Sequence record: MF158044
DNA length: 64,000 nucleotides
Source: Shigella phage Sf18
Reading direction: 5' to 3' (one strand)
Shown: piece by piece, positions 35,018-55,581 of the stretch
How positions within the stretch are numbered: position 1 is the first letter of the stretch
Layout of the letters: every line of letters starts with the position of its first letter
The notes under the pieces: generated by a model
What the model was told of the DNA's origin: nothing
Seen by the model: the letters and a program-made list of their open reading frames with translations, nothing else
Databases searched by the model: none
Made by a program: the position numbers and the translations under genes

Positions 35018-35899
35018 ATGAAAACTACTATTCGAGTTCTACTTAATTCAAATTCCAAAGGTTCTCATCAAGAGACCTTCAACATTATCCAGTTCCCTTC
35101 TGGGGAGATTGGTGGTAACTTCTCAGAAGACTTAGTAGACTTTGCTGAACATGCTGCTGGTAAGATTGAAAACGTAATATTCACTGTACAAGGTTATGAC
35201 AAAGACACACTCTTTGCATTGGCTATGGCTAAAGAGGCTATTGACCGTTTGATTCCTCAGAAAGCAACCATGAAAACTGTTCTTTTTGGATTCTTACCAA
35301 ATGCTCGCTATGACCGTCACATGTTTAAAGGCGATTCAGCAGCACTTAAAGTCTTTGCAAATCTTGTAAATGCTATGGGGTTTGATGCAGTATGTGCTCT
35401 GGATACTCACAGTAATGTAGCAGAGAACTTGTTTAAGTGCTTCTACAACATCCCTCAAAAAGAGGCAGCAGTCCACTTTGCAAGTGACCCACGCATTGAT
35501 TACTTAGTGGCTCCAGATGCAGGTGCAGCTAAGAAGACTGAAGAGGCTGCTAAAGAGGTTGAGAAACCTTATATCACAATGGCAAAGGTACGAAACCTGA
35601 AAACTGGTGAAATCACTGGTATGCGAATCCTTGATGATGTAGACTTAACAGGTAAGACTGTTATGATTCTGGATGATATCTGTGATGGTGGTCGAACCTT
35701 TATCGAGGCTGCAAAGTATCTTCGTGAAGCTGGAGCAGAACGTGTAGAGCTTTATGTTACTCATGGGATTTTCTCTAAAGGTGTTGAAAATCTTCTTGAC
35801 AATGGCATCGACCATATCTACACTACAGACTCACTAGGGGATGAAAAAGACCGTGGTCTTTCCCACTTCTCACAAGTGACAGTAGCAAATATTGAATAA
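35018..35899 (+). CDS. ribose-phosphate pyrophosphokinase-like protein (Prs family; candidate ADPR-pyrophosphokinase)
   Basis: 293 aa; two PRTase-type lobes with phosphoribosyl-binding loop (VMILDDICDGGRT); directly upstream of NadV-like gene. Confidence 0.75.
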   Translation: MKTTIRVLLNSNSKGSHQETFNIIQFPSGEIGGNFSEDLVDFAEHAAGKIENVIFTVQGYDKDTLFALAMAKEAIDRLIPQKATMKTVLFGFLPNARYDRHMFKGDSAALKVFANLVNAMGFDAVCALDTHSNVAENLFKCFYNIPQKEAAVHFASDPRIDYLVAPDAGAAKKTEEAAKEVEKPYITMAKVRNLKTGEITGMRILDDVDLTGKTVMILDDICDGGRTFIEAAKYLREAGAERVELYVTHGIFSKGVENLLDNGIDHIYTTDSLGDEKDRGLSHFSQVTVANIE

Positions 35900-35943
35900 C
35901 AACTTTAGGGGCTGAAAAGCCCCACTTTGAGAGAGATAAAAAG

Positions 35944-37761
35944 ATGACTAAATCAATCTATGCAGTACCAGCAGGTCTTAATGCAGATGCTTATAAAGCG
36001 GGTCATATCTATCAGTATCCAGATGCTACACAGTATCTTATGTTGAACTTAACACCTCGTGGAGATAAATGGTTTAACTCTCCGTTAGAGATTGATGGTG
36101 TTGTAGCTTTTGGTATTCAGCGTTTTGTAAAAGACTATCTGGTAGACCACTGGAATGCAACGTTCTTTGAACGTGATAAGAAAGAAGCCATTGACGAAAT
36201 CTTGGAAATCATGAATGGTGTCCTTGGTGCAGATGCTATTGGTCGTCAACATTGGGAAGAACTTCATGACTTGGGTTACCTGCCTGTTGAAGTCTACTCT
36301 GTAGAGGAAGGTACAATTGTCCCTATGCGTGTCCCGATGATTGTCTTCAAAAACACTGTAGAAGGATTCCATTGGGTAGCTGGTTATCTTGAAGATGCTT
36401 TCTCTGCTGAAATCTGGAAGGCTTGTACGATTGCAACTATTGCACTGCATTACAAACGTATCTGTAAGCAATGGGCTGATAAGACCTGTGACAATGACTT
36501 CCATTTACCTTGGCAGTGTCATGACTTTGCAATGCGTGGTATGTCTGGCTTCACAGATGATGCGTTTAACGCAGTAGGTCACCTGACAAGTTTTAAAGGT
36601 ACTGACAGCTTCCCTGCTGTATATACAGCTAAACGTGCATATGGTCAGTTTATGAATGTAGGTGAGATTGGTAACTCTGTCCCAGCTACTGAGCACTCTG
36701 TGATGTGTGCAAACATCTCATGGAACAGTCTTAACAAAGAGGTAAGTGATTGGCATCTATCGCATTCTGACAACTTACTTGATGCAATGCGTTGGCGTGG
36801 TGAGGTAGAAACTTTCCATCGCCTTCTGACAGAAGTTTACCCAACTGGTATTGCAAGTGCCGTATCAGATACTTACAACTTCTGGCGTACTGTTACACAG
36901 ATTCTGCCAGAGCTACGTAATGTAATTCTGAATCGTGATGGTAAGTTGGTAATTCGTCCAGACTCTGGAGACCCTGTTCACATTGTTACAGGTTACAAAG
37001 CCATTGAATGGGAAACTGCTAAGTCAATGTTCTATAAGCACATGAAAGAGCTTGCACCGAACAATACACATCTGCATGACACAATCTTGAATTGTGAAAT
37101 GTCTGATATTGGCTTTGGGTTCTCTGCTTGGCTAATCTCTGAAGGTTATGAGATGGTTGTTGATAAAGAAGATTTTGAATCTGCTGATACAATCAACCTT
37201 ATTACTGCTCAGAAGACTGGACAGTTTACTGTGAAGCGTATGCTGACAGCAGAAATTGACGGAGCTATCCACACGCTGTATAACATCTTTGGTGGCACTG
37301 TTAACTCCAAAGGGTACAAAGTACTGGATGAGCACATTGGGCTAATCTACGGTGATTCTATCACTCTGGAAAGGGCTAATGATATTCTGTCACGTCTTGC
37401 TGATAAAGGTTTTGCAAGTTCTAACGTAGTGTTTGGTGTAGGTTCATACACCTATCAGTACCTGACTCGTGACACCTTTGCATTTGCTGTTAAAGCAACT
37501 CTTGCACAGATGGATGGTCAAGAAATTATGCTGGCTAAAGACCCTAAAACTGACAGCGGTCTTAAGAAGTCTGCTTTTGGTGGAGTTGTCCCTATGTGGG
37601 ATGGTGACAAGCTGGTAGCTGTAGATGGTTTTGGCTTTGCAGAGTTTGAAGGTGCAATTGACAATTGTCATAGTGCTTTGAAACTGGTATTTAGCAACTC
37701 GCAACCTTATGGTTACGTTAACCTGCGTGATGTTCGAAATACTATTGACAAGCAACTTTAA
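35944..37761 (+). CDS. nadV: nicotinamide phosphoribosyltransferase family protein (NadV/Nampt-like)
   Basis: 605 aa; Nampt-like N-terminus (AVPAGLNADAYKAGHIYQYP) and conserved core (GDSI, VFGVGSY blocks). Confidence 0.8.
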   Translation: MTKSIYAVPAGLNADAYKAGHIYQYPDATQYLMLNLTPRGDKWFNSPLEIDGVVAFGIQRFVKDYLVDHWNATFFERDKKEAIDEILEIMNGVLGADAIGRQHWEELHDLGYLPVEVYSVEEGTIVPMRVPMIVFKNTVEGFHWVAGYLEDAFSAEIWKACTIATIALHYKRICKQWADKTCDNDFHLPWQCHDFAMRGMSGFTDDAFNAVGHLTSFKGTDSFPAVYTAKRAYGQFMNVGEIGNSVPATEHSVMCANISWNSLNKEVSDWHLSHSDNLLDAMRWRGEVETFHRLLTEVYPTGIASAVSDTYNFWRTVTQILPELRNVILNRDGKLVIRPDSGDPVHIVTGYKAIEWETAKSMFYKHMKELAPNNTHLHDTILNCEMSDIGFGFSAWLISEGYEMVVDKEDFESADTINLITAQKTGQFTVKRMLTAEIDGAIHTLYNIFGGTVNSKGYKVLDEHIGLIYGDSITLERANDILSRLADKGFASSNVVFGVGSYTYQYLTRDTFAFAVKATLAQMDGQEIMLAKDPKTDSGLKKSAFGGVVPMWDGDKLVAVDGFGFAEFEGAIDNCHSALKLVFSNSQPYGYVNLRDVRNTIDKQL

Positions 37762-44010: not shown

Positions 44011-44358
44011 ATGACGTTTAAAGAATTTTGTCAAGCAGCTTTTGCAATCATTTTCTTAACAGGTGTTGGTGCTTGGGGAGGCTACACTTACAAGACCAGC
44101 CAAGTTAATGAAAAGGAGTTAACTAACCAGAGACTTGTGAGTGTTGCTAAAGATGCTTATCAAGAGGGTTTATCAAATCTTAGCTCCAATTACAAAAATG
44201 ATTTGAAAGATGTGCTTGCTAAAAACAAACACACCAAAGAGGTATTGAACTATGAAAAAACTAAGACAGTCTTTATTAATGATTGTGCTACTGAGCCTTA
44301 TGTCAGGGTGTTCAACGAACAAAGTGAACAGTACCTTCAAAAACTCCCAAGTAAGTGA
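44011..44358 (+). CDS. type II membrane protein, candidate i-spanin
   Basis: 115 aa; single N-terminal TM (AAFAIIFLTGVGAWGG) then polar, partly helical domain; overlapped at 3' end by a lipoprotein ORF in another frame. Confidence 0.35.
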   Translation: MTFKEFCQAAFAIIFLTGVGAWGGYTYKTSQVNEKELTNQRLVSVAKDAYQEGLSNLSSNYKNDLKDVLAKNKHTKEVLNYEKTKTVFINDCATEPYVRVFNEQSEQYLQKLPSK

Positions 44359-45334: not shown

Positions 45335-45527
45335 TTTCTGCACTAAGTGTTCTGTTGAGATGTTTGGAAAAGACACAGGGGACTTAAAAGGCCTCTTTAC
45401 AAAAGCAGAGTTTGAAGCTGGTTCAGCAATGCCAGTAATCTGTGAAGGTTGTGGTGCTTTATGGGTAGACCATGAAGGTAACCGAGTTAAACCATCTGAA
45501 GATAACGAACGTTGGGAGCATTACTAA
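45327..45527 (+). CDS. small zinc-ribbon protein
   Basis: 66 aa with CxxC...CxxC (CTKCS...CEGCG). Confidence 0.35.
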   Translation: MADFCTKCSVEMFGKDTGDLKGLFTKAEFEAGSAMPVICEGCGALWVDHEGNRVKPSEDNERWEHY

Positions 45528-45528
45528 T

Positions 45529-46323
45529 ATGGGTATCGTAAAAATTATTAAAGGTGATATCTTTAAAGACTTTGATGGTAAGAAATTTGATATCATTGGT
45601 CACGGTTGTAACTGCATGAACTTGATGGGTGCAGGTATTGCAGCAACAATTGCTAAACGCTACCCAAAAGCTTATGAAACTGACGCTGAAGTTTATGCTA
45701 CAGTAGGTGGTGAAAATCATAACCCTAAGCATCTAATGCTTGGTAACATCTCTGTAGCACGTTTTAAGCAGGGTCGAATTGCTAACCTTTACACTCAGGT
45801 TATCACTGGCAAAGATGCACGATACAACGCCTTAGAAGCAGCTTTACAGCGTCTTAACAACTACTGTAAAGTTAATCAACTTAAGAAAGTTGGGCTTCCG
45901 ATGATTGGTGCAGGGATTGGTGGTCTTGATAGCATGGCTGTACTGTCCATTATCAACCAGACTATGAAGGATGTTGACGTTTATATGTATGTCTATGAAG
46001 ATAAGATGTACAGTCAGTTGACTAGTCCTGTTACTGGTTGGGAGAACTTCAGTGAGCCTCAATACTTTGATGGTGTTGCTGTGGTAGGCAAGGATAAAGT
46101 TACCCTCAAGGTGAAGCGTAATGGCAAGGTACACACCAGTTACCCTCCGGTTGAGAAGTACAATCGAAGTAACGCTCAAGTTACCCACCCGTTACAAGGT
46201 CACCACCACAGAGCGGTAACGTTTAGCGATGATGCAAGTGTATATATCAATGCGACTACAGAAGAGTTTGCAGAAGATTATATCACACATGAAAACGTAA
46301 ACTATGTTGAAGCACGTAACTAA
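45529..46323 (+). CDS. macro-domain protein (ADP-ribose binding/hydrolase family)
   Basis: Start at Met (MGIVKIIKGDIF); macro signatures GDIF, DIIGHGCNCMNLMGAGIAATI, VGLPMIGAGIGGL; C-terminal 120 aa unassigned. Confidence 0.55.
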   Translation: MGIVKIIKGDIFKDFDGKKFDIIGHGCNCMNLMGAGIAATIAKRYPKAYETDAEVYATVGGENHNPKHLMLGNISVARFKQGRIANLYTQVITGKDARYNALEAALQRLNNYCKVNQLKKVGLPMIGAGIGGLDSMAVLSIINQTMKDVDVYMYVYEDKMYSQLTSPVTGWENFSEPQYFDGVAVVGKDKVTLKVKRNGKVHTSYPPVEKYNRSNAQVTHPLQGHHHRAVTFSDDASVYINATTEEFAEDYITHENVNYVEARN

Positions 46324-46391
46324 TAAGTTACCCAGATAAACATAGACAAGCCCTCCAAAGTTTGAGTTTAAAATCTCAGGTAAGGGGGGCT

Positions 46392-46576
46392 TTTTCATTT
46401 TAAATTTGTGCAGGTATAGTTGCATAGAACTCTGGACAGATTTCTTTAGCTGAACTCCAAAGGGAAAATTCATTTCAAATTTGTGCAGGTTTAGACTCCA
46501 AAGGGATTTTTCATTTTCAATCTGTGCAGATGCAGTTGGACTCCAAAGGGAAAATTCATTTTCAGTTTGTGCAGGT
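46392..46576. repeat. tandem array of four ~42-bp repeats with TTTGTGCAGGT core
   Basis: Units (CTCCAAAGGG)(A/T)TTCATTT(Y)MARTYTGTGCAGRT at about 46392, 46466, 46507, 46552; followed by C-rich tract 46596-46630; related motif upstream of SLT-like gene at 42203-42230. Confidence 0.55.
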
Positions 46577-46778: not shown

Positions 46779-46827
46779 TTGCATCAACGGGAAACATCCC
46801 AACAATCCTAAACTGGAGAATCTAAAA

Positions 46828-47034
46828 ATGTTATATCAACGTGAGTTAATGATTGTTGACAACAACAAAACAAATAAACGTCGTTTCTATATGCTAATTT
46901 GTGATGTTTGGCAACGTATCTCAGAAAAGGATTTTGATGAATATGTTGATACGTCAATCAGGTCTGATTGTTATTTGACAACTCACACAAGGCATTACAC
47001 AAGGCATACAGCCATTTATTACTATAACGTTTAA
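46828..47034 (+). CDS. small hypothetical protein (array gene 1)
   Basis: 68 aa; preceded by conserved leader CCTAAACTGGAGAATCTAAAAATG. Confidence 0.45.
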   Translation: MLYQRELMIVDNNKTNKRRFYMLICDVWQRISEKDFDEYVDTSIRSDCYLTTHTRHYTRHTAIYYYNV

Positions 47035-47045
47035 AAGGCTTGACA

Positions 47046-47204
47046 ATGGTTAAAGAAAACGATGTAATACAATACAAAGATTTAGACGGATACCCAAAAA
47101 TTGGTAAAGTCTTCTATCTCTATAAGTCTGCTATGGGTAATGATTGTATAGCCCTTACAAATGGCGACAAAATAACCATGAAAGATTTTATAAAAATTAA
47201 TTAA
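47046..47204 (+). CDS. small hypothetical protein (below track cut-off)
   Basis: 52-aa ORF found by eye; stop TAA fused to the type-A cassette; weak SD. Confidence 0.25.
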   Translation: MVKENDVIQYKDLDGYPKIGKVFYLYKSAMGNDCIALTNGDKITMKDFIKIN

Positions 47205-47293
47205 ATAAAGTGCTTTACATGGGGTTTAAAAGCTAGTATCTTAAGCCCCCAGATAAAGAGCTTTACCAACAATCCTAAACTGGAGAATCTAAA
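47205..47293 (+). promoter_or_regulatory. type-A cassette copy 1
   Basis: TTTACA-N17-TATCTT promoter-like hexamers embedded in 9-bp hairpin GGGGTTTAA/TTAAGCCCC, then CCCCAGATAAAGAGCTTTACCAACAATCCTAAACTGGAGAATCTAAAATG. Confidence 0.5.
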
Positions 47294-47674
47294 ATGAAAT
47301 ATCGTGCGCCTAAATTTATCAACAAAGAAAACTTTCGTAGTATCTTAGAGGAAACTATGAAAGAAAACTTCAAAGGAAAAATAATTGTTGTTCACGCTTA
47401 CAATTTTAAGTATGATGTTAATGGTAACCGTATTAACCACTACAAAGCTACTATGCTTGACGGTACATTATCCGGTGAAAAAGCTATCATAAATGCTATT
47501 GCAGGACGTGGTAAAACTGTGATACGCTGTGAAAAAAGACGCTATCAAGGCGGTAAATATGGGTATGAAGATGCAATGTACCATCTTGATAAAATGGGGT
47601 ATGATGTAGAGAAAGCTGGAGTATCTCAAACTATTGGTAGTGACGGCTACGTTACAGTTTTCAAAATTAACTAA
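47294..47674 (+). CDS. small hypothetical protein (array gene)
   Basis: 126 aa; conserved cassette leader and SD. Confidence 0.5.
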   Translation: MKYRAPKFINKENFRSILEETMKENFKGKIIVVHAYNFKYDVNGNRINHYKATMLDGTLSGEKAIINAIAGRGKTVIRCEKRRYQGGKYGYEDAMYHLDKMGYDVEKAGVSQTIGSDGYVTVFKIN

Positions 47675-47765
47675 ATAAAGTCCTTTACATGGGGTTTATA
47701 GTTAGATAAGATAAGCCCCAGATAAAGAGCTTTACCAAACAATAACCTAAACTGGAGTATCAAAA
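47675..47765 (+). promoter_or_regulatory. type-A cassette copy 2
   Basis: TTTACA-N17-TAAGAT with hairpin GGGGTTTAT/ATAAGCCCC; leader variant CCTAAACTGGAGTATCAAAAATG. Confidence 0.5.
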
Positions 47766-48023
47766 ATGGCTACTATCAAAAACATCATTGTATCTGCAAA
47801 ATCTCGTGATGACGCTCGCGCAACTGCTAAAAAACTAAATGGTAAAGTGGTTGACAACGGAAAAGAATCTGCTGTAAGATGGGGCGTAAAATGTGATAAG
47901 GAAATTACTTTAAAACGTAGTTCCTATGACCTTTTCAAAGGTGTAAAAGCAATCGGTAGAACTAACGTCTACACGAAGAAAGGTTATAAAATGCACTTAT
48001 CATTAACTGACAATTTAATCTGA
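47766..48023 (+). CDS. small hypothetical protein (array gene)
   Basis: 85 aa, basic; cassette leader. Confidence 0.5.
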   Translation: MATIKNIIVSAKSRDDARATAKKLNGKVVDNGKESAVRWGVKCDKEITLKRSSYDLFKGVKAIGRTNVYTKKGYKMHLSLTDNLI

Positions 48024-48114
48024 TAAAGTGCTTTACATGGGGTTTATAGTTAGATAATATAAGCCCCAGATAAAGAGCTTTACTAACCAATAGTCCTAAA
48101 CTGGAGAATCTAAA
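48024..48114 (+). promoter_or_regulatory. type-A cassette copy 3
   Basis: TTTACA-N17-TAATAT with hairpin; conserved leader. Confidence 0.5.
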
Positions 48115-48627
48115 ATGAATTTTGTTGAAGCTACCTTTGAAGTCCAAAAAGAAAAATTCACTATCATCTATGAAGCTGTTAATATTTGTGAAGCATCCCA
48201 TTGTGTGGAGAATTGGAAGTTTACCGATGAGCACAAAGGCGGGGTTACAATCAAACTTAAAAATCCAGAGCGTAACGGGTACAAATATGCAATTCCACAG
48301 CATTACAGCCTTTCACAATTGATGAGTGATTATGCTAAACAAGGCCGCGAAAATCCATCTATAGAGGCTTACAAGAGCTTACAAGATGAATTACAAAGAG
48401 ATTTAGAGGCTAACAGCTACGTGCTATTTGCAAAGGTAGAAGATAAAGAAGGTAATACAGTATTAAATAGCTTTTCTCTTGCTTATGGCTTCGATTGGTG
48501 CTATCTTGACGGGGAAGATTTAGATTCACGATTAGAAGAGGAAGTGTCGAACTCCGATGGAGAATCTGAAGTAATGGAACGTTTAGAAGCCTTGAAAGAT
48601 TCTGTTATGAATATCTTTAATATCTAA
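48115..48627 (+). CDS. hypothetical acidic protein (array gene)
   Basis: 170 aa; cassette leader; acidic C-terminal third. Confidence 0.5.
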   Translation: MNFVEATFEVQKEKFTIIYEAVNICEASHCVENWKFTDEHKGGVTIKLKNPERNGYKYAIPQHYSLSQLMSDYAKQGRENPSIEAYKSLQDELQRDLEANSYVLFAKVEDKEGNTVLNSFSLAYGFDWCYLDGEDLDSRLEEEVSNSDGESEVMERLEALKDSVMNIFNI

Positions 48628-48711
48628 AAGTGCTTTACATGGGGTTATCAAGTTGATAAGATAGCCCCAGATAAAGAGCTTTACAAACAATCCTAAACTG
48701 GAGAATCTAAA
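48628..48711 (+). promoter_or_regulatory. type-A cassette copy 4
   Basis: Hairpin variant GGGGTTATC/GATAGCCCC (compensatory change keeps pairing); TTTACA-N17-TAAGAT. Confidence 0.5.
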
Positions 48712-49008
48712 ATGTTTATTGCCGCAAACGTTAGAACTAAATTAAGCCAGCTATTAAGTAATATCCAATTCATTGAATCTATGCGCCGTACATCTGAAGC
48801 CGTAGAGTGGTATCATGGAAAGATTAACAAAAAGGAAGTAATAATTTGTGTATGGAACTTTTGTAAAGAATACAAAAAACCATTGCTTCAGGTTGATATC
48901 TATGATAACACTAATAAGTCATCGATTAAGACCACTAGAGATATGGTTGATTCATATGAAATTAGTCACACTGGTAAACTATTCCACAAAGGTAAAAACA
49001 AATGTTAA
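48712..49008 (+). CDS. small hypothetical protein (array gene)
   Basis: 98 aa; cassette leader; stop overlaps next start (ATGTTAA). Confidence 0.5.
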   Translation: MFIAANVRTKLSQLLSNIQFIESMRRTSEAVEWYHGKINKKEVIICVWNFCKEYKKPLLQVDIYDNTNKSSIKTTRDMVDSYEISHTGKLFHKGKNKC

Positions 49009-49349
49009 TCACATACGTTGCAATTTTTATCTCTATTGTGGCGCTCTATAAAGCCTTACAAGCGCACAGTATAGCTAATAAGGCACTTACAAGGGATTTA
49101 AAAATAAACCTTGTACGGGGCTTTCTAGAGCGTTTAAGCTTAGAACAATTGAAACGCTTAGAGATGAGCTTTCGATTCAAAGCAGAAACATACCGGATTG
49201 ATAACATCCTAGACGGGGATTTTAAATTAATCAGTGATTATGACATACTTCTTGAGTCAATTCAAGATATAAACCTGAAAGATTATTATATCGTGATAGC
49301 GCAAGAAATTAATAAAAAAGAGCTTGCAATGCAGAATCAAAACAAGTAA
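49002..49349 (+). CDS. small membrane protein (array gene)
   Basis: 115 aa; N-terminal TM (ITYVAIFISIVALY); last 11 codons (KKELAMQNQNK) lie inside a type-B promoter and are shared with ORF 52598-52738. Confidence 0.45.
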   Translation: MLITYVAIFISIVALYKALQAHSIANKALTRDLKINLVRGFLERLSLEQLKRLEMSFRFKAETYRIDNILDGDFKLISDYDILLESIQDINLKDYYIVIAQEINKKELAMQNQNK

Positions 49350-49352
49350 AGT
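49324..49352 (+). promoter_or_regulatory. type-B promoter overlapping gene 3' end
   Basis: TTGCAA-N17-TAAAGT; the TAA of the -10 hexamer is the stop codon of ORF 49002-49349. Confidence 0.45.
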
Positions 49353-49629
49353 ATTCATCAACGGTACTAATGACGGTCGAACTTTGAACGTAACTTTAAA
49401 ACACTATATAGACGGTGTATTAAACTTTGAAGAGTTAAGAGCAGAACAGCACCTATTAGATTGGCAAGTAGCAGGTTTACAAAAAACCGCCACAGGATAT
49501 GGAAAGAAAATTCCTACATCTTGGAAAGTTCGATACCTTGGAAAGTTACGCAGAATTTATCAAGATGTTTACAGTAATAGCGGCGTAAGTTACATTATTG
49601 TTAGTGGTAAAAAATTGTATTTAGTCTAA
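49324..49629 (+). pseudogene. ORF without canonical start or leader (possible 5'-truncated gene)
   Basis: 101-aa frame open only from TTG at 49324; no in-frame ATG and no CTAAACTGGAG leader; begins inside the type-B promoter; ends at a normal type-A cassette. Confidence 0.25.
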
Positions 49630-49718
49630 TAAATTGCTTTACATGGGGTTATCAAGTTGCTAAGATAGCCCCAGATAAAGAGATTTATCTAAAACTAACC
49701 TAAACTGGAGACTAGAAA
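49630..49718 (+). promoter_or_regulatory. type-A cassette copy 5
   Basis: Hairpin variant GGGGTTATC/GATAGCCCC; leader variant ACCTAAACTGGAGACTAGAAAATG. Confidence 0.5.
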
Positions 49719-50126
49719 ATGACTAATGTTAATCACAAAGAAGTTGCAATTTTGAAAGCACGTTTGACCATTAACCGCATCAACATTGTAACATCAGCAG
49801 CACCAGACGAAACACTACATAATATCATCGGTAAAATTCAGGGCGCAGTAGTAGACACAAAACAGCTTAAAGAATCCTTGCAAGATGTAGCAGCAGGAGC
49901 TATAATTGACGGTGCTCAATATGAGATGAAGGAAATGCTGTCAAAGTCAAAAGTAATGAATAAAGAACTTGACTTGAAAATGTTTAGATTTGCTGTTAAA
50001 GTGTGGCTATGTGTTGATTTTGATGCAAACTTTGCAATTGCTGATTTCTTTGCAACATGGTTACAGCGTAACTTACCGGTTGAAGTTTTCCGTGAAATCT
50101 GCGATGCAATTTATTCAGAAATTTGA
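49719..50126 (+). CDS. hypothetical protein (array gene)
   Basis: 135 aa; cassette leader. Confidence 0.5.
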   Translation: MTNVNHKEVAILKARLTINRINIVTSAAPDETLHNIIGKIQGAVVDTKQLKESLQDVAAGAIIDGAQYEMKEMLSKSKVMNKELDLKMFRFAVKVWLCVDFDANFAIADFFATWLQRNLPVEVFREICDAIYSEI

Positions 50127-50155
50127 TTGACACTGCAAAAGCATAGTAGTAAAGT
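50127..50155 (+). promoter_or_regulatory. type-B early promoter
   Basis: TTGACA-N17-TAAAGT starting on the base after the upstream stop codon; followed by conserved leader. Confidence 0.5.
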
Positions 50156-50198
50156 ACTCATCAGACAACGAAACAACCCTAAACTGGAGATTCAAAAG

Positions 50199-50447
50199 AT
50201 GAAAACAAAAACACAACTCAAAAGTATGATGAAAAATGGTTTTCTCGATGATGTATACAAAGAATGTAGACGGTATGGGGAAATAAAAAGTAATTTCGAT
50301 TTTGAGTACACGTATACAGTGAATTTCAAAACTAACGAACGAAAAACAGACCTTGTAACTGAGATTCAAATAGAATACAAAGATTTATTATGGACTTTTG
50401 AACTTGTAAAAGGTTTATGCACATCGGCAGGTTATAAAAACATCTAA
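50199..50447 (+). CDS. small hypothetical protein (array gene)
   Basis: Start at internal Met (MKTKTQLK) after CTGGAGATTCAAAAG; the track N-terminal extension would translate the promoter. Confidence 0.45.
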   Translation: MKTKTQLKSMMKNGFLDDVYKECRRYGEIKSNFDFEYTYTVNFKTNERKTDLVTEIQIEYKDLLWTFELVKGLCTSAGYKNI

Positions 50448-50532
50448 AAGTGCTTTACATGGGGTTTATAGTTAGATAAGATAAGCCCCAGATAAAGAGC
50501 TTTACCAACAATCCTAAACTGGAGAATCTAAA
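50448..50532 (+). promoter_or_regulatory. type-A cassette copy 6
   Basis: Consensus copy: TAAAAGTGCTTTACATGGGGTTTATAGTTAGATAAGATAAGCCCCAGATAAAGAGCTTTACCAACAATCCTAAACTGGAGAATCTAAAATG. Confidence 0.5.
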
Positions 50533-51090
50533 ATGAAATGCTTTCATGGTACTACACAAGAAAACTTTGTAAACCTTATCAATGGCGGTGATAAACCATC
50601 AGGAGCTTGGAATTGCTCTGATATGGATGGATGTTTTTACGTCTACCCTGTTAACAAGTTCTATGATGTAGAGAATCTGGATGACGAACAAATCACAGAT
50701 GAAGGTATTAGAAACGCGCTTGATAGCGCAAGCATTACAGCAGCCTATCAAATGAAGTCACAAAAGCTTGTTATCTTGGAACTGGATATTCCAGAAGATG
50801 ATTTACAAGATGACTGGAGCTGTGAGAACATGAGCGACGTAGCAAGCTTTACAGAATATTTCGATAAAGAATGGATTAAAAAGGTTTACACAACTGAATT
50901 TAATGCTATGTATGCGCCTTTCTTTGTCCCTAACCTAAACAATAGAAATTTAGGATATGTACCAGACGAACTACGCAACATTGCAGAAATAGTCCAACGT
51001 AGTGATGGGATGAGCAATGTATATTGTGATATCTTTGACACCATGCAATGCAACGTAACAGAAACGGTTATAAACGACTTAACAGCATAA
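50533..51090 (+). CDS. hypothetical protein with ADP-ribosyltransferase-like N-terminal motif (tentative)
   Basis: 185 aa; N-terminal CFHGTTQENFVNLI resembles the HG[ST]...N..I signature of H-Y-E class ART folds (PARP/Tpt1-like), followed by Tyr cluster FYVYPVNKFY; cassette leader. Confidence 0.3.
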   Translation: MKCFHGTTQENFVNLINGGDKPSGAWNCSDMDGCFYVYPVNKFYDVENLDDEQITDEGIRNALDSASITAAYQMKSQKLVILELDIPEDDLQDDWSCENMSDVASFTEYFDKEWIKKVYTTEFNAMYAPFFVPNLNNRNLGYVPDELRNIAEIVQRSDGMSNVYCDIFDTMQCNVTETVINDLTA

Positions 51091-51153
51091 ACCATAGAAT
51101 CACACCAGTTCACTAGAAAAGCCCCGCACAGGGGCTTACAAGAGGCTTAAAAC

Positions 51154-51384
51154 ATGCTTACTACAATCTATCTTATTCTATCTATCTGCAATGGTTCACA
51201 GTGTGACTTTAAAGGTTTAGAAGAGTTTACAGGTAGCGAAAATAATGCTATTGTTGCCTGTCAGATAGCAAGGCAAGACTACCCAACATCGGATGATATC
51301 CAATGTTACTATAAGTCAGAAGATGATGAAGGTATTTACTTTGATAGTGTGAATGGTGAATATGAGATTCTTATAGAAAAGTAG
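51154..51384 (+). CDS. small hypothetical protein (array gene)
   Basis: 76 aa; SD CAAGAGG; preceded by GCCCC-GCACA-GGGGC hairpin. Confidence 0.4.
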   Translation: MLTTIYLILSICNGSQCDFKGLEEFTGSENNAIVACQIARQDYPTSDDIQCYYKSEDDEGIYFDSVNGEYEILIEK

Positions 51385-51413
51385 TTGACACTGAAAACGC
51401 AAGAAAGTAAAGT
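51385..51413 (+). promoter_or_regulatory. type-B early promoter
   Basis: TTGACA-N17-TAAAGT immediately after upstream stop; then ATTCATCAACGGGAAACATCCC and leader. Confidence 0.5.
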
Positions 51414-51462
51414 ATTCATCAACGGGAAACATCCCAACAATCCTAAACTGGAGATTCAAAAA

Positions 51463-51684
51463 ATGTTGCAAGTTCTTAACGTAAAAACCATTGATTTTAA
51501 ATTCTCAAATGTTCGTCGTACCTATTTACAGCCGTTTAGTAAACCTGTTAGGATTCCCAACGATGACGCTAAAAAGTTGATTGATGAAATTCTAGCTAAT
51601 GGCGGTTATCTGGCTAGTCATAAGCAGTATAATGATGAGGATGGAAGCCTGATAAATGAGTTTACATATTATTACTACAAATAA
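51463..51684 (+). CDS. small hypothetical protein (array gene)
   Basis: Start at internal Met (MLQVLNVK) after CTGGAGATTCAAAAA. Confidence 0.45.
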   Translation: MLQVLNVKTIDFKFSNVRRTYLQPFSKPVRIPNDDAKKLIDEILANGGYLASHKQYNDEDGSLINEFTYYYYK

Positions 51685-51775
51685 CTAATAAAGTGCTTTA
51701 CATGGGGTTTATAGTTAGCTAAGATAAGCCCCAGATAAAGAGCTTTACCAACAATCCTAAACTGGAGAATCTAGA
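51685..51775 (+). promoter_or_regulatory. type-A cassette copy 7
   Basis: TTTACA-N17-TAAGAT with hairpin; leader CTGGAGAATCTAGAATG. Confidence 0.5.
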
Positions 51776-51973
51776 ATGTTATCACTGATGCAAAAACTTT
51801 CTACCTTGTGGTGTTTAAAAGGTGTAGAGTGTAACCTTAACATGGAAGGTTCAAAGATAGACCTAAAAATAGTATACAATGGAGAAATACTATTCTCACA
51901 GAATAGCAGTCATCCACACTTCAAAGATAATGCAATTATGGCCGTGAATAATCTGATGGATAGAATTTATTAA
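51776..51973 (+). CDS. small hypothetical protein (array gene)
   Basis: 65 aa; cassette leader. Confidence 0.45.
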   Translation: MLSLMQKLSTLWCLKGVECNLNMEGSKIDLKIVYNGEILFSQNSSHPHFKDNAIMAVNNLMDRIY

Positions 51974-52058
51974 AGTGCTTTACATGGGGTTTAAAAGCTA
52001 GTATCTTAAGCCCCAGAGAAAGAGCTTTACCAACAATCCTAAACTGGAGAATCTGAAA
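51974..52058 (+). promoter_or_regulatory. type-A cassette copy 8
   Basis: Hairpin variant GGGGTTTAA/TTAAGCCCC; -10-like TATCTT. Confidence 0.5.
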
Positions 52059-52400
52059 ATGGCCTATGTAACAATTATCACCGATAAAGAAAATTCGTCA
52101 TGGTCTACCCAAGTTAACGACAAAATGAAACCTATGCAGTGTCTCAAGTACTTTGAGCAATGGAACAGGGGAGAAGATGTAAGCCCCTTTCAAGTGATGC
52201 AGATTGTACATGTTGACAATGAAGGGAATAAAACTACCCTTAACACTGAATACTATGCTACACGTTTCGAAACTCGCAAATCAGCTATGCAGGAGTTAAG
52301 AGAAAAGGGATATAGTCACATTGCCGCGCTCATTTGGTCTGATTTGCTTAAAAAACAGTCATTAACCTATGTTAAGCCAGAAAAAATCTTTATAAGCTAA
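52059..52400 (+). CDS. hypothetical protein (array gene)
   Basis: 113 aa; cassette leader. Confidence 0.5.
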   Translation: MAYVTIITDKENSSWSTQVNDKMKPMQCLKYFEQWNRGEDVSPFQVMQIVHVDNEGNKTTLNTEYYATRFETRKSAMQELREKGYSHIAALIWSDLLKKQSLTYVKPEKIFIS

Positions 52401-52597
52401 TCAACAACTTATAAAAAATCTTTTGAAAAACTATTGACAATGCCCCTTGACAAGTGTAACTTTGTTCGAGGGGGTTTATCTAAAAGGGGTTAACTTAATA
52501 GATTCTTTATAGATAAGCGTAAAAAGTACTTGCAAAGGTCTAATCATATCTATATAGTATCTTCAAAAGGCAACTTCCTAAACTGGAGAATCACTAA
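52401..52597 (+). promoter_or_regulatory. intergenic control region with stacked promoter-like boxes
   Basis: TTGACAATGCCCCTTGACAAG (two -35-like boxes) and TTGCAA-spacer-TATATAGTA, then leader CCTAAACTGGAGAATCACTAAATG. Confidence 0.35.
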
Positions 52598-52738
52598 ATG
52601 TTAGATATCATTAAAAACCCTATCCTTTGCGGTATGATTGTTTCTGTTGTGTTGCCATTAGCAATGCTCATCATTGGTGAAATCTCAGATAAACTTTTTG
52701 ATAAAAAACTACTTGCAATGCAGAATCAAAACAAGTAA
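52598..52738 (+). CDS. small membrane protein (below track cut-off)
   Basis: 46-aa ORF found by eye; TM core (ILCGMIVSVVLPLAMLIIG); conserved leader; C-terminal KKLLAMQNQNK encoded by the type-B promoter sequence. Confidence 0.4.
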   Translation: MLDIIKNPILCGMIVSVVLPLAMLIIGEISDKLFDKKLLAMQNQNK

Positions 52739-52741
52739 AGT
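52713..52741 (+). promoter_or_regulatory. type-B promoter overlapping gene 3' end
   Basis: TTGCAA-N17-TAAAGT; identical over about 45 nt to 49324-49362; followed by hairpin GGGGAGG-GAGA-CCTCCCC and leader. Confidence 0.45.
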
Positions 52742-52802
52742 ATTCATCAACGGGGAGGGAGACCTCCCCACTAAACAAAATTCCTAAACTGGAGAATCTA
52801 GA

Positions 52803-53330
52803 ATGAATAAGTTTAATGCTGTTAATGCAATCCGTAGCCGTGAAGTGATGAGCAAGCCTTGTAAAGATACTTGGGAATTTACCTTAAAGAGCAAAGTTTT
52901 TGCAGTTATCACAAAAGGGGAAGATAAGCAGTTTTATGTACACCGACCAAATGTAAAAGCGGTAACAGCCAACAACTTTATGGGGGCTATTTCTCTTATT
53001 CTGAATGATTATATGGCTATAGTCGCAGAAATTCACGAAATGGCTATTAAGGCAACTAAAAACGAGTTAAACCGCTTTAAAATGGCTTATGAGCGCTCTA
53101 TTAAGTCCCATAATCTTTTTATTGCAATCCACTATACAGGCATGTATGCTATGGGAACGGGTAACCAACAATACCCACTCTATGAAGTGGAAAACATCTT
53201 TACAAGTGACTACCCAACAACTAATTTTAAAATTACGTTAGGGGAAGCATTAAATAGGGGAATTAGGCTTTACGAACAATCTTTAAAAAACTTAGAAAAT
53301 TCCCTTGACGAAATCATCACAAATCTATAA
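52803..53330 (+). CDS. hypothetical protein (array gene)
   Basis: 175 aa; cassette leader. Confidence 0.5.
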   Translation: MNKFNAVNAIRSREVMSKPCKDTWEFTLKSKVFAVITKGEDKQFYVHRPNVKAVTANNFMGAISLILNDYMAIVAEIHEMAIKATKNELNRFKMAYERSIKSHNLFIAIHYTGMYAMGTGNQQYPLYEVENIFTSDYPTTNFKITLGEALNRGIRLYEQSLKNLENSLDEIITNL

Positions 53331-53333
53331 AGT
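53305..53333 (+). promoter_or_regulatory. type-B early promoter
   Basis: TTGACG-N17-TAAAGT, with TAA as the upstream gene's stop; then CTTATCAACGGGGAGGGAATGACCTTCCCC hairpin and leader. Confidence 0.45.
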
Positions 53334-53390
53334 ACTTATCAACGGGGAGGGAATGACCTTCCCCAACAATCCTAAACTGGAGACTAGAAA

Positions 53391-53654
53391 ATGAATAATC
53401 AAGAAATCACTATCCTGTTACAAATCGGTACTGACAAAGAAGATATCCAACTTTGCAAACGTATTGAAAGTGATTGGTTCAACGGTGAAATCATCGCAGA
53501 ATCTTATGAAGTAGTCGGATTCATGAATGGTGAAATTGTAAGCCATTTCGGTTTAACTAAATCTGAAGCCGTTGCAAAGTATGACGTTTTATCTTGTGAG
53601 ATTCTTACAAAATACAATGAAAAAAGACTTGCAACTTATGCAGCAATGAATTAA
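53391..53654 (+). CDS. small hypothetical protein (array gene)
   Basis: 87 aa; leader CCTAAACTGGAGACTAGAAAATG. Confidence 0.5.
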   Translation: MNNQEITILLQIGTDKEDIQLCKRIESDWFNGEIIAESYEVVGFMNGEIVSHFGLTKSEAVAKYDVLSCEILTKYNEKRLATYAAMN

Positions 53655-53657
53655 TAT
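53629..53657 (+). promoter_or_regulatory. type-B early promoter
   Basis: TTGCAA-N17-TAATAT, with TAA as the upstream stop; then TTTCAACGGGGAGGGAGACTTCCCC hairpin and leader. Confidence 0.45.
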
Positions 53658-53719
53658 TACTTTCAACGGGGAGGGAGACTTCCCCACTAACCTAAATTCC
53701 TAAACTGGAGAATCTGAAA

Positions 53720-53971
53720 ATGGCTACTATCCACGCAACTGTTAACAATTTTGGCTTCCATGTATTAGATGTTAAATTTGATATGGTTGGAACTGGCGAT
53801 GTTTTTGGCATGGTTGATATGTGTCTAAAAGCAACTATTCAGGACTACAATCAATCTGAGTGGTTCTGGAAAGAAGTAAAACAAGAAGTCTTAAAGGATG
53901 GCAAATCCTCTTACTATTGGGGTGATTCTCTTATCACGCTTTACTATGAAGTTGACGGCTTCAATAACTAA
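53720..53971 (+). CDS. small hypothetical protein (last array gene)
   Basis: 83 aa; cassette leader. Confidence 0.5.
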   Translation: MATIHATVNNFGFHVLDVKFDMVGTGDVFGMVDMCLKATIQDYNQSEWFWKEVKQEVLKDGKSSYYWGDSLITLYYEVDGFNN

Positions 53972-54035: not shown

Positions 54036-55581
54036 ACGTCTTCCTAGAATCTTACCATTGATTCGATAGAATCTATCCCATACATTTAGAATAATAACTC
54101 TATAGCTTACTCTATATCCTCTTATCAAATCAACTTAAATATAAGCCCATAACCCGAAAGGGAAGGGCAATCCCTAAAACGCTCTATAACGCTCTATACG
54201 GGCTTATCATCTCATCTTAAGCAATCATATTAACCTGCTCTTAAAAGCCCTTTATAGAGCTTTCTAGAGCCTTAAAAGAATCTTATAAGGGTATAAGCTT
54301 TATTATCTCGTTAGTATCTTGTGAATGGTTAAACAGGGGCTTGATAATAGCTTTAAAGTATGTTATGGAGTCTTCAAAGTAACGTAAAAGAACCTTAAAA
54401 GTAACGTAAAAGTTAGCCCCCTTTACATTCTCTTAACAAAATCTTAACAAATGCTACATAGTTATGCTTGTTAGCCCCTTGTTAAATCCTTGTTAGAGGT
54501 ATGTTAAGAGCTTGTTAGCCTCTTTGAAGTCCCTGTATAAGCCCCTAGAAAGCCCTATAAAGAGCTATACAGGTAGTTGGGGTGTAGTTACTAGGGAGAA
54601 CCTTAGAAGAGGCTATATAGAGCTATACAGAGCTTTTAAGAGGGCTTTATAGAGAATCACTAAGAAGGGAAGGGAACTATAGACCAAGAGATAGTGACCA
54701 TGTTAATAGCTTGTTAAAAAGGTTTAGAACTTGTTAGCACCTTGTTAATTATCTTAACAAAATAACTCTTAAGATTTAACTATTTAGCAACTTATAAGCA
54801 ACTTGTTAGACCCTTGTTAGTAGTGTTACAGACTGGTTAAGCTCTTGTTAGTTCTGTTAAGAGGCTGTTAAGAACTTTGAAGAGATGTTAAGAGCTTGAG
54901 AGAGTTGTTAAGAGATTGTTAATGATATTTTAAGATTTTGCAAAGGGGATGTTACAGGGCTGTTTAGGGCTACCAAGCAGATATACACCCTAAGTAGATA
55001 TTTTTCAGATTCTCCAAAGACCCTAAAAAGTAACCTACCTAGTCTATTTTATAAAAATTTTATAATTCTGAATAACTATCTATACACTATCTTATATAAA
55101 ACAGGAATTAACAGGCTTATAAGATACCTTGTTAGTACCGTGTTAGACCTTGTAGGATAAGCCTAAGAGGTTGATTCTTAAGAACAACCGAATCAACTAG
55201 AAGGGAATACCTGTTTAGTGTTATATAACAGTCTATATAGAGGCTTAGTAATACCTAGTGATTCTGCTATATAGGGTACTATCGTTTACCTAGAGATTAA
55301 GATGGCTATAGGGGCTTCTAAGGGGCTAGGAAGAGGTTAGGAAGGTGATTGTATAGGGTTGATTAATGGTAGGCTTAGAAGGCTTTATAGAGGGCTATAT
55401 AGAGAGCACTATTTAGGGACTAAGAGGTTATATAGATACTATATAATACTATATAGAGATGATGCTTAGAGAGGGTGTTTAGAAGGGTATAGATATTTTA
55501 TCACATATCATGGTGACCCAAGATGAACGGAGTGAATCCCAAATTTTATAAAAATTATAAATTTCGTAAATTTTACTCAAT
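54036..55581. repeat. ORF-free repeat-dense region (candidate origin, packaging or terminus region)
   Basis: No ORF of 60 aa or more on either strand across about 1.6 kb; dense short degenerate repeats (CTTGTTAG, GTTAAGAG, TATAGAGC, TTAGAAGG, AGTAACGTAAAAG x2) and AT-rich palindromes ATTTTATAAAAAT. Confidence 0.6.

Follow-up and report, generated by a model that had tools for sequence, protein, structure and literature searches.

In the 64,000-nucleotide stretch of Shigella phage Sf18 considered in the current analysis (sequence record MF158044; hereafter referred to as the window), a complete open reading frame (ORF) at 50533..51090 of the plus strand encodes a protein of 185 amino acids that is almost certainly a homologue, by fold, of the ADP-ribosyltransferases (ARTs). 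The protein is likely to be an active enzyme using nicotinamide adenine dinucleotide (NAD+), and we somewhat favour its description as a small, stand-alone and very acidic early mono-ADP-ribosyltransferase of the H-Y-[EDQ] clade that targets protein. The window belongs to a Mooglevirus (Ounavirinae, FelixO1-like), and the protein matches PHROG 3303 (function not assigned) end to end and has a 100% identical counterpart, labelled 'hypothetical protein', in Shigella phage Sf13 (Mooglevirus). Judged by the defining features of the known groups, it represents an unannotated family of a known kind of enzyme, with no membership in Arr, DarT, Tpt1, PARP or Alt/Mod.

A preliminary description of this ORF, made from the letters alone, had proposed an ADP-ribosyltransferase-like N-terminus and had named structure prediction against ART folds as a way of checking it. 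At the level of the fold the proposal holds. The AlphaFold2 model obtained with an alignment of 128 sequences has a predicted local distance difference test score (pLDDT) of 95.5 and a predicted template modelling score (pTM) of 0.90, and contains the split β-sheet of the ARTs. The ART-fold core, residues 1-123 (50533..50901, on the plus strand as are all the features of this gene), is made up of strand 2-8, helix 9-16, strand 35-39, helix 51-73, strand 77-85, a loop at 86-104 and strands 105-107 and 115-123. It is followed by a mostly helical C-terminal extension, residues 124-185 (50902..51087), that is specific to the family, acidic and less conserved.

The part of the protein aligned in the structural comparison is the N-terminal stretch of about 120 residues. 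Its structural neighbours include CC0527 (score 5.6), Arr (5.3), CARDS, the ART-like domain of CNFy, PARP15, PARP4, PARP1, PARP10 and PARP16, DarT (4.3-4.6), OspC3 and Scabin, and further pierisin, diphtheria toxin, exotoxin A, RES toxins, IcmQ, BC2332, Tne2, AcrIF11 and also Tpt1. A search of BFVD returned one relative and, with weak scores, a DarT and an Arr-like protein, both from phages. A first model, built with 20 close homologues, was mediocre (pLDDT 68) and was replaced by the 128-sequence model; the enrichment in the fold comparison was already present with this poorer model.

The His and Tyr strands pointed out in the preliminary description correspond to the conserved motif-1 (H5) and motif-2 (Y36) positions. 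Both peptides quoted there are present in the protein, FYVYPVNKFY at residues 35-44 and CFHGTTQENFVNLI at residues 3-16, the latter having been numbered 4-17 and thus off by one. The HG[ST]-x3-N-x3-I pattern is also present, with its last position falling on L15 and the isoleucine, I16, coming next. Taken by itself, HG[ST] is found twice among the 21,818 residues that make up the window ORFs of at least 60 amino acids, which is near chance and not beyond it, so that evidence from the family and from structure is needed for the observation. It is conservation, rather than the bare motif, that makes the N-terminal motif real.

Conservation was counted over 144 family representatives that are about 21-50% identical to the Sf18 protein. 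In the candidate NAD-binding motif 1, H5-G6-T7-T8 (50545..50556), the histidine is found in 141/144 (98%), the glycine in 137/144 (95%), the first threonine in 124/144 (86%) and Thr or Ser at the fourth position in 137/144. The candidate motif-2 tyrosine, Y36 (50638-50640), lies in the strand F35-Y36-V37-Y38-P39 (50635..50649) and is present in 142/144 (99%). A family signature, D93-D94-W-S96-C97-E-N99-M100 (50809..50832), carries the candidate catalytic acid D94 (50812-50814), conserved along with S96 in all 144 sequences; C97, N99 and M100 are found in 131, 126 and 140 of them respectively. The complete set of near-invariant positions comprises H5, G6, T7, [TS]8, W26, S29, Y36, A62, A66, D94, S96, C97, N99, M100 and A104. 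The preliminary description could assign no catalytic glutamate, and indeed the family has no conserved one: E83 (in LELDIP), considered as a candidate, was rejected with its presence in only 80/144 sequences. The acidity is a property of the family as well, the isoelectric point (pI) of 4.05 and net charge of -21 in the Sf18 protein comparing with family medians of 4.27 and -21.

A word-indexed search identified 41 close relatives, all of them without a name, and a profile search of 1.84 billion cluster representatives (clusters at 50% identity) identified 387 proteins at E<=1e-3. Among the 150 relatives listed of these 387, nearly all are 160-220 amino acids in length, with few fragments, and each matches in one stretch. 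Members are encoded in 375 of 50,697 phage records searched with tblastn. The carriers comprise Ounavirinae of Escherichia, Salmonella, Shigella, Citrobacter and Erwinia, 80 Pseudomonas records, those checked being Pakpunavirus, and Vibrio phages of about 136 kb; a scan for related loci with a narrower alignment gave mostly Ounavirinae. The 40 family-positive phage records listed include no T4-like genome, and every annotated one among them has an uninformative label only. A motif scan of bacterial and archaeal genomes (185,579 species, one genome each) revealed no member, and the distribution of the family is phage-restricted. The ART assignment is reflected in none of the public annotation, PHROG and Pfam entries; a literature search on Mooglevirus gave nothing on this protein, and one on phage-encoded ADP-ribosyltransferase found nothing.

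Direct assignment to a family by sequence search of Pfam, NCBIfam, PADLOC and PDB was rejected, as the matches were all below threshold. The Sf18 protein itself has no family match in Pfam, and a scan of 128 members gave 24 weak matches to PARP (best E 6e-4), 6 to Tpt1 and 5 to DUF6912. All 24 PARP (PF00644) matches lie below the gathering score and, in the three members inspected, cover the His strand only. DarT (PF14487) was matched by a single member (E 0.01 over 21 residues; E 0.005 with PADLOC), again below threshold. In the matches that were inspected the N-terminal strand of the family falls on positions ~49-89 of the PARP profile, ~98-133 of Tpt1 and 1-33 of DarT, which are the regions holding the NAD-binding His strand. 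No significant match to Arr (PF12120) or to NADase families was found in Pfam for either the Sf18 protein or the members.

DUF6912 (PF21853), on which no literature was found and which has no assigned function, is matched by the 5 members with a best E of 6.9e-5. One of them, P0248, reaches 27.6 bits against a gathering score of 27 bits over the helix-strand-DxSC region. DUF6912 is probably a sister or overlapping family, although most members of the phage family, the Sf18 protein included, do not match it.

The assignment of the candidate site comes from the comparison with Arr, the ADP-ribosyltransferase that modifies rifampicin (rifampin), for which the Arr-2 query sequence was checked against PDB 9iba. 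In a single-sequence hhalign comparison the helix 57-73, the strand 77-85 and the segment 'IPEDDLQDDWS' were aligned with Arr-2 'AVWGAELAM...YIYIVEPTGPFEDDPN', placing D94 on D91 of Arr-2. Against a 114-sequence Arr profile, one unconstrained local alignment pairs H5, Y36 and D94 with H22, Y52 and D91 of Arr-2, that is H19, Y49 and D84 in the numbering of Arr-ms. These three residues are necessary for the activity of Arr-ms (Baysarowich 2008, as cited in PMC13246000). The alignment scores 19.7 (P 0.024, probability 2%), a score reached by 1 of 200 column-shuffled Arr profiles. The profile was assembled from Arr sequences with 69% or more identity to Arr-2 and one partial sequence of Arr-ms (~55% identical), and because it holds only these close relatives of Arr-2 the comparison is statistically weak, while it lends support to the mapping of the residues. 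The site is probably H-Y-D (His5-Tyr36-Asp94) and not H-Y-E as the preliminary description had it, with Asp as motif 3. With the three residues placed on the His, Tyr and Asp of Arr, the family fits best into the H-Y-[EDQ] clade, as an H-Y-D member.

The likeness to Arr extends to size and layout. Both are small single-domain ARTs with a common order and spacing of motifs: an [FY]HGT strand, a helix, the Tyr strand, a helix, a hydrophobic strand ending in x-P and, after five residues, D-D. The phage protein differs from Arr in a helix longer by 23 residues, in W26, S29 and the invariant S-C-x-N-M after the Asp, in the 60-residue helical extension at the C-terminus, and in being phage-encoded and, as predicted, expressed early. 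There is no reason to expect rifamycin as its substrate.

The RNA 2'-phosphotransferase Tpt1/KptA (PF01885) has, besides its NAD-binding C-lobe, an N-terminal RNA lobe with an Arg-His-Arg-Arg tetrad, and the phage protein has neither; a lobe of this type is missing because the HGT strand starts at residue 4. Tpt1 is further of the H-H-h clade, whereas the phage protein has Tyr and Asp at the second and third positions. Unlike DarT, the ART of DarTG that acts on thymidine in single-stranded DNA, it is acidic, not basic, and has no adjacent DarG-type antitoxin. Alt, ModA and ModB are phage-encoded ARTs with which T4 reprograms its host as infection begins, and the role of the Sf18 protein may be analogous. 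They belong, however, to the R-S-E clade in which Arg replaces His at motif 1, are larger, include the virion-packaged Alt, and have no detectable sequence relation to the phage protein; of their motifs Arg / Ser-x-Ser / Glu-x-Glu, the first is replaced by His and the second by Tyr in the Sf18 protein. AcrIF11, an anti-CRISPR ART of phages and plasmids, has a low structural score, no sequence similarity and another set of motifs.

A survey of viral NAD+ and ADP-ribose systems describes 16 viral ART families, among them a frequent H-Y-[EDQ] family called 'p0068-like' that occurs in phages of Escherichia, Shigella and Salmonella beside the Dmd antitoxin (Iyer et al. 2022, PMC9503650). Escherichia phage Mizar encodes a 105-residue 'hypothetical' protein (L067, 2173-2490; ...FKIFYHGSSS...) that ends directly before a gene for a Dmd-like antitoxin. 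This arrangement, not annotated in the record, is probably the pair of p0068-family ART toxin and Dmd as that survey describes it. By the description given in the survey, p0068-like is probably a family different from that of the Sf18 protein, since Dmd homologues are confined to T4-like phages, the Mizar 'YHGS' protein matches the profile of the phage family over the His strand only, and the window contains no Dmd-like ORF.

The gene is expected to be expressed early. The ORF delimited in the preliminary description is real, having an ATG start and a GGAG ribosome-binding site (RBS) at 50521-50524, 8 nucleotides upstream. Its designation as an array ORF is also correct, as the gene lies in a run of small ORFs on the same strand and is preceded by a copy of an 89-nucleotide repeat (50447..50535). 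This copy contains, besides the RBS, a sigma70-like promoter, TTTACA-17-TAAGAT (50454-50482), and an imperfect inverted repeat around the -10 element. The repeat is present in at least 7 copies between 47.2 and 52.1 kb, many of the small array ORFs having such a cassette of ~89 nucleotides upstream. The region shares 99% identity with Shigella phages Sf13 and Sf19.

The following course of events is proposed. Host RNA polymerase would transcribe the gene from its own sigma70-like promoter directly after infection. The HGT strand and Y36, as placed in the ART fold, would hold NAD+ in the manner known from the superfamily. D94, in the invariant D-x-S-C-x-N-M loop, may then stabilise the oxocarbenium and bring the acceptor into position or activate it, so that a single ADP-ribose would be transferred to a host target. 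The net charge of -21 and the pI of 4.05, in which the family is alike, speak for a basic host protein, possibly one that itself binds nucleic acid, and against a direct action on nucleic acid. A role in host take-over or counter-defence would be in keeping with the location of the family in arrays of small early or accessory genes and, elsewhere, beside SprT-like, DUF932, ArdC-N/MPTase and GP88 genes.

Several points weigh against a protein-modifying ART. Profile similarity reaches significance with none of the named ART families, Arr included; the clustering of H5, Y36 and D94 in space is derived from alignment; known ART sites contain nothing that corresponds to the invariant Ser96 and Cys97; and an acidic surface is equally expected of a non-enzymatic protein or a DNA mimic.

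One alternative is an NAD+-using protein that does not modify protein. It might be an Arr-like transferase with a small molecule as its substrate (a metabolite, an antibiotic-like compound or an immune second messenger), or it might release a soluble derivative of ADP-ribose or act as an NAD+ glycohydrolase. In the alignment of its triad and the spacing of its motifs the protein comes closest to Arr, which is a small-molecule O-ADP-ribosyltransferase, Tpt1, RES and Tne2 are among the structural neighbours, and the use of NAD+ would be offset by the Prs-like and Nampt-like salvage genes of the phage. Against this stand the lack of a significant match to Arr (PF12120) or any NADase family and the harm that depletion of NAD+ would cause to the phage itself. 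We know of no candidate small-molecule substrate for enterobacterial phages, and we regard this alternative as unlikely. Improbable, in turn, are two more specific proposals: that the protein is an Arr-like O-ADP-ribosyltransferase inactivating not a macromolecule but a small molecule, for instance an anti-phage metabolite or a second messenger of immunity, or that it founds a new class of enzymatic effectors directed against defence, with a specific defence protein as the substrate of ADP-ribosylation. In the latter case, the AdfM-like macro, NADAR or PARG genes found nearby in some lineages would limit collateral modification.

The acidity would also suit a non-catalytic protein with an ART fold, serving as a binder or sponge of NAD+ or ADP-ribose ligands, or as an acidic mimic that blocks a DNA- or RNA-binding protein of the host. 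Inactive ART folds typically lose the catalytic positions. In the phage family the three positions of ART catalysis (His, Tyr and the acidic residue), as well as G6 and T7, are instead near-invariant down to ~20% identity, and the chance that the protein is of this non-catalytic kind appears small.

The preliminary description had also suggested that the phage encodes both a writer and an eraser of ADP-ribosylation, the eraser being a macro-domain protein encoded at 45472..46323 on the plus strand. This protein has an N-terminal macro domain (Pfam Macro, residues 44-160, 32.7 bits), 40% identical (E 2e-19) to T4 Tk.4, and a C-terminal extension of ~120 residues without a family match. Its gene is situated 4.2 kb upstream of the ART gene, and between the two lie a spacer of opposite orientation and about 10 ORFs, of which several have their own promoter cassette. 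The synteny of the two genes is kept across the Ounavirinae, including Erwinia phages in which the ART is only 34% identical, and counts as one lineage. Only ~3 of 17 independent lineages have a gene for an ADP-ribose hydrolase at a distance of 10 kb or less, and in the ~14 other contexts there is none within 8-10 kb. One phage context has an NADAR gene 2.3 kb upstream of the family member and another a microbial PARG gene 4 kb upstream.

A DarT-like nucleic-acid ART acting as writer, with the macro-domain protein as its dedicated eraser or antitoxin, is on these grounds improbable. A pI of 4.05 is wrong for an enzyme binding single-stranded DNA, the macro gene is neither adjacent nor co-transcribed in any obvious way, its macro domain resembles that of an anti-DarT2 factor, most lineages have no hydrolase within 10 kb, and no conserved neighbouring partner gene exists. 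T4 Tk.4 has been described as AdfM, a counter-defence factor against DarT2 (2025 preprint) in a type of phage that is absent from the family-positive records listed, and the macro-domain protein of the window, by its similarity to it, is better explained as an anti-DarT factor of the AdfM type. A dedicated partnership with the ART gene is improbable, and the pairing of writer and eraser is not borne out. Since an independent role against DarTG is established for both macro and NADAR genes (2025 preprint), such a pairing is possible and yet not needed to explain the data.

That the protein is no ART at all, with a coincidental motif and structural matches that amount to a generic α/β similarity, is highly improbable beside the split β-sheet of the model and the conservation of the motif positions.

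A related observation concerns two unrelated metagenomic phage-like contigs (L002, 4892-8546; L006, 907-8606). Each encodes a member of the family and an HD-domain protein, the two HD-domain proteins being 38% identical to each other, and one of the contigs carries NADAR where the other carries microbial PARG instead. This may be a functionally equivalent swap in the type of ADP-ribose hydrolase.

A conserved neighbouring partner or antitoxin was sought among the flanking ORFs of 12 contexts and rejected, the ORFs being similar neither to each other nor to T4 Dmd. Genes recurring in the neighbourhood of the family across contexts encode SprT-like, DUF932, GP88, ArdC-N/MPTase-PolyVal, RadC and CapR-homology proteins, and such neighbours in long runs of small ORFs are typical of early or counter-defence regions. 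SprT-like metalloprotease genes, and DUF932, GP88 and ArdC-N/MPTase-PolyVal genes as well, recur near family members in the contexts L004, L007, L008 and L060, the last being Pseudomonas phage K5; in L004 and L007 the SprT-like gene is directly upstream. CapR-homology domains occur in Vibrio, Pseudomonas and other distant contexts.

The ART-carrying genome of the window also has an NAD+ salvage module consisting of two adjacent genes (35018-37761), one Prs-like (phosphoribosyl-pyrophosphate synthetase; 35018-35899) and one Nampt-like, of the Nampt/NAPRTase family (35944-37761).

The array in which the ART gene lies (46780-53730) has at least two classes of repeated upstream cassette. The first, 'AAAGTGCTTTACATGGGGTTTATAGTTAGATAAGATAAGCCCCAGATAAAGAGCTTTACC...CCTAAACTGGAGAATCTAAAATG', has the TTTACA-17-TAAGAT promoter with an imperfect inverted repeat (GGGG..CCCC) across its -10 element, and the second has TTGACA-17-TAAAGT followed by 'TCATCAACGGG(GAGGGAGACCTCCCC / AAACATCCC)' hairpins, which may serve as an operator, as an attenuator or in RNA processing. 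An RBS block, CCTAAACTGGAG, with 13 occurrences, is common to both classes. A unit of ~43 nucleotides, '..CTCCAAAGGGAAAATTCATTT(C/T)AAATTTGTGCAGGT', has five copies, of which four lie at 46373-46576 with a spacing of 41-75 nucleotides, in the interval separating the macro gene from the array, where a minus-strand ORF alone overlaps them, and the fifth, at 44177, is a 65% match. Beyond the array, the region 54170-55400 is largely poor in ORFs and dense in short direct repeats, with 'CTTGTTAG/CTTGTTAA' at 11-nucleotide phasing and units of the 'AGCTATACAG/CCCTATAAAG' type at 10-nucleotide phasing. It resembles an iteron or binding-site cluster, raising the question of an origin or a regulatory region. 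No transfer RNA genes are present anywhere in the window.

Phages of the FelixO1-like (Ounavirinae) and PAK_P1-like (Pakpunavirus) groups are widely used in typing and therapy, and their early arrays are almost entirely 'hypothetical'. Unlike T4, the phages that carry the family have no known ART. The present analysis further cautions that a phage macro domain need not be the eraser of a phage writer. If the ART assignment is true, the family would be a new H-Y-D family in the ART superfamily and would provide a function for PHROG 3303 and probably for Pfam DUF6912. With the gene present in 375 sequenced phages and 387 metagenomic clusters, a host-modifying enzyme of this kind has probably gone unrecognised in several hundred phages, and the assignment turns a conserved early gene into a testable hypothesis of host take-over or counter-defence in which three candidate active-site residues are named.
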